DNA from: Bacilli bacterium | Lineage (GTDB): Bacteria > Bacillota_I > Bacilli_A > RF39 > UBA660 | Reading direction: 5' to 3' | NCBI GenBank assembly: GCA_017888105.1 | Contig: JAGHGS010000172.1 | Location: 1-35,452, forward strand | Length of the DNA stretch: 35,452 bases | In this document: positions 25,779 to 29,459 of the stretch, in pieces | Layout of the letters: each line of letters opens with the position of its first letter | How positions within the stretch are numbered: the first letter of the stretch is position 1 | Translations under genes and position numbers: made by a program | The notes under the pieces: generated by a model | The model's database searches: none | What the model saw: the letters and a program-made list of their open reading frames with translations, nothing else | What the model was told of the DNA's origin: nothing

Positions 25779-27305
25779 TTACTTCATTTCCCCTAAAATT
25801 CTAGTCAAAATGGTAATATTGTCATGTTCTTTAACGTAATTTATCAGATTATAATAATACCTAGTACATCTTTCGTGTAAATCAAATTTTTTATAAAGTA
25901 AATCTTCTGCTAAAACTTCCTCATTAGCATAAATAAACATATGAGCCACATACTGATTATATTCTTTAGAAAGCATAATATAGTATTTTAAATCATTATT
26001 ATTTATTTCCATAACATTTAATGTTTCAAAATTATCACTATTTTCTACACCAATATCATAGTTATTTGCTCTTTTGCTAATCTCTTTAATTAATTTATTA
26101 ATTTTTTTCTTTTCTTTAGCTTTCTCTTTAAATGAAACAAAATATTTCTTTGATTCTAATAAAATATTTTTTACTATTTCATCTTGAACAAAAAATTTAG
26201 TATTGAAATTAGCAATAGTTAGTTTTACTTCTTGTAATTGACCATTTACTAACATTAATCCTTTAATTAATTTTTTATTATCTTTAATAAGAGATAATAA
26301 GTCTTTAACTTTTACTTCAACAAACTTTTTAGATTCTCTTCCGTCTGGTTTTAATTGATATAAAGAAATGTTATCAACATAAAAATAGTAGTATTGAAAT
26401 TCGTTTATTTTATATTTTTTCTTTAAAACAAGTTTTTGCTTTCTTTTAGTATAAAATTTAACTTTATTTTTAACTAAATCTAATCCAGTTTCTTCTTTTG
26501 CCTCTCTAACAAGGCAGGTACTTACACTTTCATTAGCAGTTAAATGACCGCCTACTGTCAATTCGCACAAATCTCTAGTAAATACATTATTATGTTTAGC
26601 ATTTTTGAGTTGCAGATAAATTGTTCTTTTATAAGGATTAATATATATCATATTTACAGTTTTAGCATAATAATTAGAATTGTTTAATATTTTTCTTTTA
26701 TAAATACCTTGATATTTCTCATCAGCATCATAAACATCAATATATTCATCATCACCTTTATCATTTTTTCTAAAGCCTTTTAAAAAACCAGAAGCATCTT
26801 TATACATATCATTAAATTCTTGATTTAAATCCAAGTTATGAGTTTGAGCTACATTAAATACAATTGACATCATTTTAGTAATAATACTTATGATAAAATC
26901 TTCATGACTTTCGTAATCTTCCCTTTTCTTATAAAACCTTTTATTATTAATCTCCATATTAGCCTCTACTAATTGTCCAAATAAAACTGTTAAATCTTCA
27001 ATATTAGAAGAAGATATAAGATCTTCATCTTGAAAATCATATAAATTTATTTTAATTAAATCAGATAAAGCAATAAGTTGAAGTATTACATCTGATAATT
27101 CATCACCAAGATTATTAATTTTTCTATTTTTCTCACTACAATCTTTATAAAATATATTAAATACATGAGATATTTGTACAGATAATTCATTTAGAATATC
27201 TAATGCTGTCCAATCAAGAATTCTAGTTTTTTTAAATTTATTACTTAAATCCACAGCATTTTTATAATTATTATTTAAAAATTGTATATAAACTTCTTTA
27301 TTCAT
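25779..27305 (-). CDS. MazG-like NTP pyrophosphohydrolase / Nudix hydrolase fusion protein with unknown C-terminal domain
   Basis: Start reassigned to ATG 27305 (MNKEVYIQ), which follows an AAGGAG RBS. The N-terminal all-alpha region includes LGDELSDVILQLIALSDLIKINL (MazG/DCTPP1-like). A complete Nudix box is present: GGHLTANESVSTCLVREAKEETGL (Gx5Ex7REUxEExGU). Confidence 0.65.
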   Translation of the reverse strand: MNKEVYIQFLNNNYKNAVDLSNKFKKTRILDWTALDILNELSVQISHVFNIFYKDCSEKNRKINNLGDELSDVILQLIALSDLIKINLYDFQDEDLISSSNIEDLTVLFGQLVEANMEINNKRFYKKREDYESHEDFIISIITKMMSIVFNVAQTHNLDLNQEFNDMYKDASGFLKGFRKNDKGDDEYIDVYDADEKYQGIYKRKILNNSNYYAKTVNMIYINPYKRTIYLQLKNAKHNNVFTRDLCELTVGGHLTANESVSTCLVREAKEETGLDLVKNKVKFYTKRKQKLVLKKKYKINEFQYYYFYVDNISLYQLKPDGRESKKFVEVKVKDLLSLIKDNKKLIKGLMLVNGQLQEVKLTIANFNTKFFVQDEIVKNILLESKKYFVSFKEKAKEKKKINKLIKEISKRANNYDIGVENSDNFETLNVMEINNNDLKYYIMLSKEYNQYVAHMFIYANEEVLAEDLLYKKFDLHERCTRYYYNLINYVKEHDNITILTRILGEMK

Positions 27306-28416
27306 AGTTGAACTCCTTGCTATCATCTAATATTAAAGGTTTTGCACCATTAGAAATTGAATTGTATGTATATTCGCTAATTTTATTAGTTGTAACATAT
27401 ACTCTAATATTTAATAAATATGACAAATAGGATAAATCACTCATTTCTAAATCTACGTTTTTAATTTCTAAGCCATTATCACTTAAATTATATTTTCTTT
27501 GATCAGTATATTTACCTAATTTTCTTAATAGTTGATCGCATTCCTTAGAAACCTCTATAAATTGTATTAAATGTCTACCTTTAGCACAAATTCTTCTTTG
27601 TTCATCAGAACAAATATTTAATTCTGTACATTCATACGTTCCGTAATAGAAACATGGCTTCTTTAATTTAGCACATAATGCACATATATTAGCATGATAA
27701 ATTTTTTGATTATCATGATATGATCCACCATGAAAATAATCCCAAGCGACTTTTGGATAAACACTCTCTGCTTGTAAAACTTCTTCTTTATGTGCTTTTA
27801 TACTATCCCAAAAGCTAATCTTATCAATAAAATTCGGAATCAATTTTAAACCGGTGATCGTGCTGATATCTGTATAAGGATTGACAGTTGCTATTATATC
27901 ACTTATTTTAGTACTATTTTGTGGTATTAAAGGTCTAAAATAATGAATTGTAGCAATATCAGCAGCTTTTAAATTTTCAAAATTCTTCAATATGTTTTTA
28001 TGTTTTACATTTGGTTCTAATTTCTCTAAACCTGAATAACTTAAATAAATAACTTTTTGATTTTTCATTGATTTTAATTTATCAATAACATAATTCGGTA
28101 TTAAACACTTTGTAACAATTATAATTGTATTTAAGACATTTCTTTTTTCTAACTCATCTAATAAAGATAAGATATATTTTGTATTACTGTCATTTAAGAA
28201 AGCATCTGTTTCCGGCAACAAACATACAGGTATTCTTGGATCATAATAAATAGAATTTAATAACTCATCTATTGCTTTATCTGGACTACAAATAATTTCA
28301 GGATAAGCACAATTCTTTCCTTCTGATTGTAAAAAACAATATTTACATCTATTATAGCATCCGCGTATAGCATTTACTGCTATCCAACTAGCGTGCATTT
28401 CAATTATATTTTTCAT
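27298..28416 (-). CDS. radical SAM enzyme, SPL/SplB-like (COG1533-type) with Cys-rich C-terminal region
   Basis: CYNRCKYC (Cx3Cx2C) lies near the N-terminus. LPETDAF and IIIVTKC resemble the spore-photoproduct-lyase-like family. Seven Cys fall within ~55 aa near residue 240-300. The likely start is ATG 28416 (the track's GTG at 28425 is also possible). The stop overlaps the next gene's start (ATGAATAA). Confidence 0.65.
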   Translation of the reverse strand: MKNIIEMHASWIAVNAIRGCYNRCKYCFLQSEGKNCAYPEIICSPDKAIDELLNSIYYDPRIPVCLLPETDAFLNDSNTKYILSLLDELEKRNVLNTIIIVTKCLIPNYVIDKLKSMKNQKVIYLSYSGLEKLEPNVKHKNILKNFENLKAADIATIHYFRPLIPQNSTKISDIIATVNPYTDISTITGLKLIPNFIDKISFWDSIKAHKEEVLQAESVYPKVAWDYFHGGSYHDNQKIYHANICALCAKLKKPCFYYGTYECTELNICSDEQRRICAKGRHLIQFIEVSKECDQLLRKLGKYTDQRKYNLSDNGLEIKNVDLEMSDLSYLSYLLNIRVYVTTNKISEYTYNSISNGAKPLILDDSKEFNYE

Positions 28417-28488
28417 TAACCCCACTTCGTTTCATGCAAGTTATAATAATTTAAGTGGATTTTAAAGTAAAGTGAAAGTTTGGCACAA

Positions 28489-28509
28489 AAAAGGAAAATT
28501 TTTCCTTTT
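28489..28509 (-). terminator. possible intrinsic terminator after the LysR gene
   Basis: The palindrome AAAAGGAAAA-T-TTTTCCTTTT overlaps the lysR stop codon, with a T-rich continuation on the minus strand. The stem is AT-rich. Confidence 0.35.
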
Positions 28510-29371
28510 AGTAATTTTCCTTTATAAAATCAATAAATGTTTGAGTTGATTTTGTTAAATTTTCTTGATCGTATAATACACTAATTCTATATTTTAAATC
28601 ATTCTCTAATGATTTAAAAATAAGTTCTTTTTCTTTAGCAATTTGATAAGGAACAATGCCTGCAACAGGTTTTTCTTTAATAAAATCAGCTATGGATTCA
28701 AAATCAGATAGTTCATACTTAATACAATACTTTATATTATTTTGTTCTAAGTAAGTTGTTATTTTTTTTCGACAAAAGTTTTCTTTAATTGGAAGAACTA
28801 TTGGTATAGATTCTAAATTTTCTGTATTTAATTTTGAATTAAAAGCCAAACAATAATTATCTTCAAATAAAGGTATTATAATATGTTTGTCATTTTCTTG
28901 TTTAATTTCTATTTCATCTATAATTAAATCAATGTTATATTCTCTAATCTTTCTAATAACATCTTTATAATTAGAATTTATAAACTTGATTTTTAAATTA
29001 TTATTTTTATCCATAAAATTATTTAATATATCAGACATATAATACTTTTGAATATCACGAGATATAGCTAAACTTATCTTACCAAGAGTTATATCTTCTG
29101 ATTCATTCATTTCCTTTTCAGTTAGCATCAATACATTTAAAGCACGTTTAATTCCACTATAAAGGATTTCTCCTGCAGGTGTTAATATGATTCCGGTTTT
29201 TTTTGATGAGTTATAGAGTTTTCTTCCAAAATCATCTTCTAATTTACAAAATTGCTTTCTTAAAGCCGATCTATCTAAATTAAGTTTATCAGCTGCTCTA
29301 GTTAATGATCCTTCTTCTACCATCACAGAAAAATTTTTTAATGCTTGTAAACTAGCTGTCTCTATTACCAT
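28508..29371 (-). CDS. LysR-family transcriptional regulator
   Basis: N-terminal wHTH LQALKNFSVMVEEGSLTRAADKLNLDRSALRKQFCKLEDDFGRKLY, followed by a ~200-aa substrate-binding-type C-terminus. Confidence 0.8.
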   Translation of the reverse strand: MVIETASLQALKNFSVMVEEGSLTRAADKLNLDRSALRKQFCKLEDDFGRKLYNSSKKTGIILTPAGEILYSGIKRALNVLMLTEKEMNESEDITLGKISLAISRDIQKYYMSDILNNFMDKNNNLKIKFINSNYKDVIRKIREYNIDLIIDEIEIKQENDKHIIIPLFEDNYCLAFNSKLNTENLESIPIVLPIKENFCRKKITTYLEQNNIKYCIKYELSDFESIADFIKEKPVAGIVPYQIAKEKELIFKSLENDLKYRISVLYDQENLTKSTQTFIDFIKENY

Positions 29372-29398
29372 AGCAAATCCCCCTTAAATTTGCTACTT

Positions 29399-29459
29399 AC
29401 TTTAACATAAAACCATCAAAATGTCAATTATTCTTATTTAAACTATTACTTAAATAGTT
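29399..29459 (-). promoter_or_regulatory. lysR promoter with upstream LTTR-type dyad
   Basis: On the minus strand, TTGACA (29427..29422), 17 nt, then TAAAGT (29404..29399). The dyad AACTATT-N5-AATAGTT at 29441..29459 has a T-N11-A-like architecture. Confidence 0.5.

Follow-up and report, generated by a model that had tools for sequence, protein, structure and literature searches.

Gene organisation of the operon

The subject of this analysis is a three-gene operon in a 35,452-nucleotide stretch of DNA (contig JAGHGS010000172.1 of the Bacilli bacterium assembly GCA_017888105.1, positions 1 to 35,452, hereafter the window), which has a G+C content of about 25% and carries nearly every gene on the minus strand. 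The operon encodes a LysR-family regulator, a radical S-adenosylmethionine (SAM) enzyme, referred to as the rSAM enzyme, and a partner protein in which a MazG-like domain, a Nudix hydrolase domain and a third, C-terminal domain are fused. The open reading frames (ORFs) are as follows.

28508..29371, minus strand: LysR-family transcriptional regulator of 287 amino acids (aa), directly 5' of the rSAM gene and co-directional with it
27298..28416, minus strand: rSAM enzyme of 372 aa (a GTG at 28425 is the start of the longest ORF)
25779..27305, minus strand: partner protein of 508 aa (MazG-like, Nudix and C-terminal domains)
27298..27305, minus strand: overlap of the rSAM stop and the partner start, 8 bp, ATGAATAA

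These three minus-strand gene models are those of the initial annotation, which was made from the sequence alone, and identical metagenomic contigs carry the same 372-aa and 508-aa models from gene callers. The translational coupling that it proposed for the rSAM and partner genes is borne out by the overlap, and an AAGGAG lies 7 nucleotides (nt) 5' of the partner ATG. The regulator belongs to the LysR-type family, as both of its Pfam matches are above cut-off (HTH_1 at an E value of 7.9e-13 and LysR_substrate at 4.8e-17); no NCBIfam equivalog matches it at cut-off.

The radical SAM enzyme

With the Pfam Radical_SAM profile (PF04055) the rSAM enzyme scores only 3e-4, under the gathering cut-off, which many of its homologues pass. 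Membership of the radical SAM superfamily is settled by the CX3CX2C motif, together with a confident AlphaFold model of an rSAM barrel (pLDDT 92.9) and a Foldseek search with that model in which the matches are exclusively rSAM proteins, with a probability of 1.0. The enzyme also has a C-terminal alpha/beta domain. Two sets of cysteines are conserved.

28336..28359, minus strand: CX3CX2C cluster motif (C20, C24 and C27, in GCYNRCKYC), invariant in 41 homologues
27586..27684, minus strand: auxiliary cysteine set C245-x17-C263-x5-C269-x7-C277, all four invariant in the 41 homologues

The second set lies in the extra cysteine cluster to which the initial annotation had drawn attention: all seven of the cysteines that it counted are present, within residues 245-293, and four are the invariant ones listed. 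Three of these (C245, C269 and C277) are also invariant in a 7-sequence alignment that includes homologues from Streptomyces and Labrenzia, which share the surrounding motif. The four-cysteine set is a candidate second Fe-S or metal site. SPASM domains have the cysteine pattern CX2CX5CX3C, which the C-terminal cysteine spacing of the rSAM enzyme does not fit.

Beyond the superfamily level the rSAM enzyme is an orphan: its family, which comprises at least 289 clusters at 90% identity, shows no specific resemblance in sequence or fold to spore photoproduct lyase (SPL), viperin or any solved enzyme. A profile search of the Protein Data Bank (PDB) with the rSAM alignment returned nothing meaningful, Foldseek comparison of the model with PDB and BFVD returned generic rSAM matches only (TM-score of 0.45 or less), NCBIfam gave only sub-threshold matches, to TIGR04072 and the Rv2578c family, and a profile search of protein sequences yielded further members of the family but no distant relative that bears a name. 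In the NCBIfam, PDB profile and Foldseek comparisons the enzyme clusters neither with bona fide SPLs nor with a known cofactor pathway.

Domains of the partner protein

The AlphaFold model of the partner (pLDDT 87.8) consists of a six-helix N-terminal domain (residues 1-177), a Nudix domain (188-372), linker helices and a C-terminal domain (426-507). The description of this protein in the initial annotation, as a fusion of MazG-like, Nudix and unfamiliar C-terminal domains encoded close to lysR, with a perfect Nudix box and a degenerate first MazG motif, was accurate in each of these respects.

26766..27305, minus strand: divergent MazG-like all-alpha domain, partner residues 1-180, with invariant W32, E40, Q44, H47, E69 and D72
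26181..26750, minus strand: Nudix hydrolase domain, YfcD/IDI-like, partner residues 186-375 (Pfam NUDIX 8.1e-10, above cut-off)
26481-26549, minus strand: Nudix box GHLTANESVSTCLVREAKEETGL, partner residues 253-275, intact and with residues nearly invariant in relatives
25782..26048, minus strand: C-terminal domain, partner residues ~420-508, a four-strand sheet plus two helices, weakly conserved

The MazG-like domain of the window has no Pfam match; among 25 members of its family, five match PF12643 (best E value 1.2e-5) and six match PF03819. The sole three matches of the family profile in PDB are MazG-type pyrophosphatases (4qgp, 5ie9 and 2gta), with weak E values of 0.06-0.28, and these align on the D-E-x-x-D helix; in a comparison by hhalign with an annotated MazG protein the probability is 71% and the E value 3.7e-5. 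The second acidic motif, D68-E69-x-x-D72, is conserved, and in the degenerate first motif E40 is retained and Q44 and H47 are invariant. Residues 1-180 of the partner thus appear to be a remote relative of MazG.

Membership of the Nudix superfamily follows from the box (GX5EX7REUXEEXGU) and from fold matches that are Nudix enzymes. Foldseek was run with the whole partner, and the matches, which are dominated by the Nudix domain, are led by Escherichia coli YfcD (2fkb, 2.6e-7) and isopentenyl diphosphate (IPP) isomerases (2i6k, 2.1e-6). The C-terminal domain, which forms a separate 132-aa gene at three related loci (L019, L008 and L062), has no invariant polar residue in its alignment and no relative in PDB, and is probably non-catalytic.

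Conservation of the gene set

Hidden Markov models (HMMs) of the individual domains were scanned over all fetched loci, which were collapsed to 44 groups at 85% rSAM identity, and components were counted within 4 kb of the rSAM gene.

MazG-like domain: 44 of 44 groups
Family-specific Nudix: 32 of 44 groups (missing in 12)
LysR, homologous and upstream: 32 of 44 groups
C-terminal domain: 19 of 44 groups

Since the MazG-like domain is found at all 44 loci and the Nudix domain at only 32, the obligate core of the module is the rSAM enzyme plus the MazG-like domain. The initial annotation had made conservation of the pair as neighbours a test of its proposal, and had emphasised the combination of rSAM and Nudix proteins; the genes are indeed conserved as neighbours and that combination recurs, but it is the MazG-like domain, not Nudix, that never separates from the rSAM enzyme. 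The two are fused in three of the 44 groups, and in most of the others their genes overlap or are separated by at most 4 nt. Fusions exist in both orders, with the MazG-like domain C-terminal in P0062 and P0236 and N-terminal in P0091, P0142 and P0152. In protein databases the MazG-like domain occurs alone (~180 aa), with Nudix, at either end of rSAM, and with a family 2 glycosyltransferase (GT2). In a species-level genome collection, the rSAM family is found almost only in metagenome-assembled genomes of uncultured gut Bacilli, “Tenericutes” and Clostridia.

Genomic contexts and mobility

A neighbour-joining tree divides the family into four groups: conjugative-element, MMPL-transporter, chromosomal and HprK-kinase clades. 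The conjugative-element clade, which includes the window, has the triple-fusion partner, and its module always lies directly upstream of a 156-aa ORF, an RHH protein, a SpaA-type adhesin and a sortase. This same slot is used across a diverse family of conjugative elements, and 31 loci have the same downstream gene. The MMPL-transporter clade has the rSAM and MazG-like genes only. In the HprK-kinase clades there is in addition a P-loop protein resembling HprK-related kinase B (TIGR04355, 1e-9), and sometimes a RimK-type ATP-grasp ligase, GalU and another Nudix protein; a Pfam tag of “ScmC” on the P-loop protein gave no literature lead and was set aside. The gene order at locus L012 is MazG-like, rSAM, GalU, Nudix, and the metagenomic locus L096 encodes a kinase-like protein, a GT2::MazG-like fusion, rSAM and two Nudix proteins among three GT2 genes, a pyruvyl transferase and a deacetylase. 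The recurrent glycosyltransferase and GalU neighbours suggest a nucleotide-sugar as a possible substrate, an idea that the initial annotation did not contain.

The chromosomal clade carries the components as separate genes, flanked on one side by dinB/yolD, an AlkD-like gene, a peptidyl-prolyl isomerase (PPIase) gene and a thioredoxin-domain gene, and on the other by sufC-sufBD-sufS-nifU; one example is on a 601-kb contig, near rpoBC. Synteny is conserved among six loci (L041, L045, L048, L071, L081 and L082), in which yolD-dinB on the opposite strand is followed by the AlkD-like, PPIase and thioredoxin-domain genes, then LysR-rSAM-MazG-like-Nudix and the suf genes. L081 and L082 are without the AlkD-like repair gene and sufC-sufBD, and keep sufS-nifU. 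The surroundings of this clade are thus a cluster of damage- and Fe-S-related genes. The idea that the module is mobile cargo holds for the conjugative elements and for one group that adjoins phage tail-fibre and minor-tail genes on an IMG/VR contig, but not for this clade, which is resident in the chromosome between dinB/yolD and the suf operon.

The element in the window has been found in identical form in hundreds of metagenome assemblies. Searches for near-identical plasmid DNA by megablast and for matches in phage records by tblastn were negative. The module decays in some elements: truncated rSAM fragments are present in L075, L077 (two), L079 and L080, and what is left in L080 runs in frame from the N-terminus of rSAM into the end of the MazG-like domain.

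The closest divergent relative of the window module (L005, 62% rSAM identity) differs in that several genes intervene between LysR and rSAM (413-5890 of that locus). They encode a UvrD-like helicase, a guanylate-kinase-like protein, a family 4 glycosyltransferase (GT4, with a weak match to “GT4-conflict”), an APH/RIO-like kinase and a 145-aa Nudix protein, and the locus may be an expanded version of the system.

Distant homologues on plasmids

Full-length relatives with 24-30% identity were found by tblastn on linear plasmids of Streptomyces and on plasmids of Labrenzia/Roseibium; the family HMM scores the Streptomyces homologues at E values of 1e-86 to 1e-99 and the Labrenzia homologue at 1e-29. 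On pFRL6 the gene order is MazG, a small AAA_33 kinase, two dCTP-deaminase-like proteins, cytidine deaminase, a methyltransferase, GalU, rSAM, a GT4 that matches the Pfam family “GT4-conflict”, and a HAD hydrolase directly before Tra genes. The stretch of this plasmid (L084) at 2797-4941, with the AAA_33 kinase gene followed by the two dCTP-deaminase-like genes and the cytidine deaminase gene, includes kinase and dCTP-deaminase genes that we take to resemble nucleotide-depletion defence genes. Four other Streptomyces plasmids carry GT4, hexapeptide transferase, aldolase, MurA-like and rSAM genes in that order (NZ_CP109396 is without the first two), with an RNase_T exonuclease and an AAA_28 kinase/ATPase, or Nudix, or neither, 3' of rSAM. 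On the Labrenzia plasmid pBCL1, a large N6 methylase, rSAM, an exonuclease, a kinase-like ATPase and an HD protein adjoin traF/traB/traH.

Regulatory signals and transcription unit

Sites that bear on the expression of the operon are listed below.

29613-29637: good terminator of the upstream gene, preceding the operon (hairpin z = -4.2)
29438-29462, minus strand: dyad of 10 nt, TTAAACTATT-N5-AATAGTTAAA, before the lysR promoter-like site
29427-29399, minus strand: lysR promoter-like site TTGACA-17-TAAAGT with TG, consensus match only
28417..28507, minus strand: lysR-rSAM intergenic region, 91 bp, with a hairpin, a promoter-like site and a degenerate palindrome
25603..25636, minus strand: weak terminator-like hairpin and U-run after the partner gene (-7.6 kcal/mol, z = -0.99)

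The operon looks like its own transcription unit, given the terminator upstream and a strong, separate promoter for the gene that follows it. The initial annotation had assigned it a promoter and dyad before lysR and a terminator after the partner gene. These sites exist, but promoter-like matches are no more frequent in the sequence than in shuffles (42 against 39.6 expected) and the hairpin after the partner gene is not significant on its own.

In relatives, the promoter of the structural genes appears moreover to lie elsewhere than solely upstream of lysR, where it had been placed. The lysR-rSAM spacer of the window contains a weak 10-bp hairpin with a T-run (28489-28509, -6.4 kcal/mol, z = -2.18) and a promoter-like TTTACT-17-TATTAT (28471-28443), and in relatives a TGCA-N4-TGCA palindrome is conserved there, together with a TTGTAAAATTG element and a -10. 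Exact copies of the palindrome are found at 10 of the 44 loci, against 0.8 expected, and the copy in the window is degenerate (GTGCCAAACTTTCAC). The palindrome 5' of the rSAM gene in relatives is operator-like, and we infer that transcription of the structural genes probably starts at a promoter in this spacer that depends on LysR.

Surroundings of the module in the window

The window is a Gram-positive-type conjugative element with a VirB4-like ATPase, M23 peptidase, primase, N6 methylase fragment, SSB, adhesin and sortase; no relaxase or oriT was identified in it. Directly past the stop codon of the partner gene, at 25693-25777, are three direct repeats of ~28 nt (ATTTTATGGTATTTTTTCT...), 23-34 nt apart, where a regulator of the transfer genes that lie downstream may bind. 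The 156-aa ORF that follows (24988-25458; to 25546 with its promoter) has no family match, and is the gene found downstream of the module in the 31 related loci. Its strong promoter is a near-consensus TTGACA-17-TATTAT flanked by TTGACAAT/ATTGTCAA palindromes. As it has this promoter of its own and resembles the element backbone, it was rejected as a part of the module, and its product is probably a regulator within the backbone of the conjugative element. Likewise, the upstream ABC-F, APH and DegT genes were excluded as being specific to this one element.

20223-23835: 999-aa surface adhesin of the SpaA/Cna-B type with a C-terminal membrane anchor, and overlapping sortase gene, within the transfer region
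9631-10371: short ORF (246 aa) with an N6 DNA methylase domain, among transfer genes and adjoining those for the M23 peptidase and VirB4-like ATPase
31585-34333, strand opposite to the transfer genes: three regulators with tandem HTH_3/HTH_19 domains, including 32990-33490 and 33797-34333

The first of these is presumably the mating adhesin, the second may be an orphan methylase, and the third looks like the repressor region of the element.

Predicted function and alternative explanations

The fixed pairing of the rSAM enzyme with a domain resembling nucleoside triphosphate (NTP) pyrophosphatases, the frequent presence of Nudix, and the recurrence across three phyla of enzymes of nucleoside monophosphates (NMPs), NTPs and nucleoside diphosphate (NDP)-sugars together suggest that the substrate is a nucleotide or nucleotide-sugar. 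The same three clues point to a possible physical or kinetic coupling of the radical step with the release of pyrophosphate. On a judgement that is evenly balanced, we take this conserved, mobile, LysR-controlled operon to encode a two-part enzyme system acting on such a substrate, by the following route. The MazG-like domain would bind the triphosphate end of an NTP and cleave it to NMP and pyrophosphate, which would either supply the substrate of the rSAM enzyme or process its product at once. The rSAM enzyme would cleave SAM and abstract a hydrogen from the ribose, the base or an attached sugar, which would then be rearranged or modified. Nudix would hydrolyse diphosphate-linked forms, for example an NDP or NDP-sugar, so that the net product would be a modified nucleoside monophosphate or sugar phosphate and not a polymerase-competent triphosphate. 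LysR would turn the operon on from the promoter in the lysR-rSAM spacer in response to some small molecule.

The biological role is the weakest step of the proposal. The module would be an accessory trait spread by mobile elements, serving either competition between genomes, through a modified nucleotide or a DNA or glycan modification that shields the element or hampers its rivals, or the handling of a nucleotide-derived compound. Carriage by conjugative elements, a prophage and plasmids, the decay of genes in some lineages and the GT4-conflict neighbour favour an accessory function in conflict or competition, and the chromosomal clade and LysR control speak for a role in metabolism or stress. 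Defence is a possible role. The more specific proposal that the rSAM/MazG-like pair and Nudix are a new mobile nucleotide-modification system, turning an NTP or UDP-sugar into a modified product for mobile-element conflict, we regard as tentative and on the doubtful side. The product could be a viperin-like replication poison, from which the producer would be safe thanks to the two hydrolases, or a precursor for DNA or glycan hypermodification that would guard the transferred element against restriction. A system of this kind, if real, would add a second and independent way in which rSAM chemistry yields antiviral or anti-restriction nucleotides, with conjugative elements, prophages and actinomycete plasmids as its carriers.

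Several observations weigh against these proposals. The four extra cysteines could be zinc ligands rather than part of an Fe-S cluster. The MazG-like domain is assigned on weak scores (best E values of 1.2e-5, 3.7e-5 and 0.06) and has a degenerate first acidic motif; it could be a nucleotide-binding domain that has no hydrolytic activity. The position of the 10-group chromosomal clade by suf, dinB/yolD and AlkD-like genes fits a housekeeping or stress function better than conflict, and LysR control is unusual for defence systems. The HprK-like kinase and ATP-grasp ligase of some clades are elsewhere companions of peptide modification, and the module in the window has no glycosyltransferase or kinase of its own. 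For every member of the family, the chemistry is a prediction from sequence and models.

Few rSAM enzymes that act on nucleotides are known, and several of them are of wide interest (viperin, MoaA, QueE, OxsB and PolH). In a large rSAM family with a fixed genomic partner, the search for a substrate can be narrowed to nucleotides or nucleotide-sugars, and the chemistry is open to direct test. Travel on mobile elements, with distant relatives by transfer genes on plasmids of Streptomyces and of marine alphaproteobacteria, suggests that the function probably bears on the establishment or competition of mobile elements. A modified nucleotide, if that is what the system makes, could serve as a new scaffold for antivirals or antimetabolites, or be a new kind of DNA modification.

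The chromosomal clade is one argument for an explanation that we consider unlikely, namely that the module sanitises the nucleotide pool or responds to damage: LysR would sense stress, the hydrolases would clear damaged or non-canonical NTPs, the rSAM enzyme would repair or destroy a damaged nucleotide, and mobile elements would carry the module so that the cell copes with stress. MazG and Nudix are the classic house-cleaning hydrolases, there are stress sensors among LysR regulators, and the clade lies between dinB/yolD, AlkD-like and thioredoxin-domain genes and the suf operon for Fe-S assembly. However, a single group of related genomes accounts for that synteny, which may be a historical accident. 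Sanitation does not require a radical enzyme, and we know of none that acts in it; nor does it explain the glycosyltransferase, GalU and MurA-like neighbours or the strict association and fusion of rSAM and MazG-like proteins.

The same regulator and the same chromosomal residence could also be read as signs of an inducible pathway for the breakdown or salvage of a modified nucleoside or nucleotide-sugar from the gut environment, in which LysR would sense the compound, the hydrolases would trim it and the rSAM enzyme would open or convert it. The rSAM lyase of queuine salvage would be a comparable case, substrate-inducible control of the LysR type is typical of catabolic operons, and the hosts are uncultured gut Bacilli, for which small genomes and dependence on salvage are assumed. 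Nevertheless we hold salvage to be quite unlikely, as no transporter is consistently linked to the module, carriage by conjugative elements, a prophage and actinomycete plasmids, on which it adjoins tra genes, would be unusual, and the glycosyltransferase neighbours indicate synthesis and not breakdown.

Modification of a peptide or protein by an rSAM enzyme with auxiliary cysteines, with the MazG-like domain as scaffold or substrate, is very improbable. The top fold matches do include the peptide maturases SkfB, SuiB and anSME, and the HprK-related kinase B-like protein and RimK-type ATP-grasp ligase are present in some clades; but those fold matches are generic, the cysteine spacing is not that of SPASM, and the 91-bp gap between lysR and rSAM is too small for a precursor gene, with no convincing small ORF downstream. 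The MazG-like domain, furthermore, retains acidic and His residues, all invariant, of the sort expected in an active site, and the Nudix box is intact.

Finally, we give hardly any credence to a true DNA repair enzyme of the SPL type, which automated COG1533 labels imply (two members are named “DNA repair photolyase” by JGI) and to which the initial annotation likened the enzyme, a likeness that turns out to be generic: SPL is among the fold matches (TM-score 0.45, E value 3e-4), but ranks under SkfB, HydE and NifB and no better than these and anSME, its profile matches with an E value of 0.93 over 17 residues, it has to our knowledge no auxiliary cysteine set, the hosts, uncultured gut Bacilli, are not known to sporulate, and the chemistry of SPL has no use for an obligate MazG-like partner.

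Comparison with known systems

The combination of genes that makes up the proposed nucleotide-acting system had not been recognised as a described one in the initial annotation, and the literature that we searched contains no description of it. In PADLOC-DB 2.0, no family matches the rSAM enzyme, LysR or the downstream ORF at an E value of 0.01 or less; the sole match is a trivial one over 29 residues, of the Nudix box to PDC-S07 (E value 0.0034).

Viperin and its prokaryotic relatives (pVips) share with the rSAM enzyme the rSAM barrel (TM-score ~0.40), and viperin acts on an NTP, is found by nucleotide-metabolism genes and is used in conflict with viruses. There is, however, no specific similarity in sequence or fold, viperin structures being among the generic matches only, and the structures matched are described with a single [4Fe-4S] cluster, in contrast to the auxiliary cysteine set here. 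Viperins are not known to have such a cysteine set, and pair with kinases and not with pyrophosphohydrolases.

OxsB and OxsA of oxetanocin A biosynthesis are a plasmid-borne pair of rSAM enzyme and phosphohydrolase that act together on dAMP, dADP and dATP, and would be the closest functional analogy to the obligate rSAM/hydrolase pair. OxsB differs in being cobalamin-dependent and much larger (727 residues in 5ul3), with a TM-score of 0.34 and homology only in the rSAM core, and OxsA is an HD-domain enzyme, whereas the partner here is MazG-like plus Nudix. SPL (COG1533; structures such as 4k9r and 4fhf), to which the family is allotted by automated annotation, has in common with it a CX3CX2C motif at the N-terminus and a barrel of similar shape. 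SPL proper is marked by a single cluster, a catalytic Cys/Tyr hydrogen-donor chain and a DNA lesion as substrate; the present family differs in its extra invariant cysteines, its C-terminal alpha/beta domain and its obligate MazG-like partner.

In the homologues on Streptomyces plasmids a gene for a MurA-like enolpyruvyl transferase directly precedes the rSAM gene, as the PolA step precedes that of PolH (NikO and NikJ) in the polyoxin and nikkomycin pathways, where PolH cyclises enolpyruvyl-UMP, a nucleoside monophosphate. The motif of PolH is at C225-C232 and binds one cluster (PMC5365060). The orthology with PolH/NikJ that these neighbours brought to mind is ruled out, as the motif here is at residues 20-27 and is accompanied by the auxiliary cysteine set; the window module, moreover, is without a MurA-like gene.

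The MazG-like domain has the helical bundle and the conserved D-E-x-x-D helix of MazG, MazZ and DCTPP1, but is ~180 aa long with six helices, has E40...Q44...H47 in place of EExxE and scores under the Pfam cut-offs. MazG-type enzymes of phages feed NMPs to nucleotide-modifying enzymes. YfcD and the type-1 IPP isomerases, the best fold matches of the Nudix domain, are also the best weak NCBIfam matches of the stand-alone Nudix proteins; identity is ~11-18%, and the domain here is fused between the MazG-like and C-terminal domains. None of viperin, OxsB/OxsA, PolA/PolH and the dNTPase-fed modification of phages is a homologue beyond the superfamily level, and the rSAM/MazG-like operon is a real, conserved and undescribed module assembled from known superfamilies.

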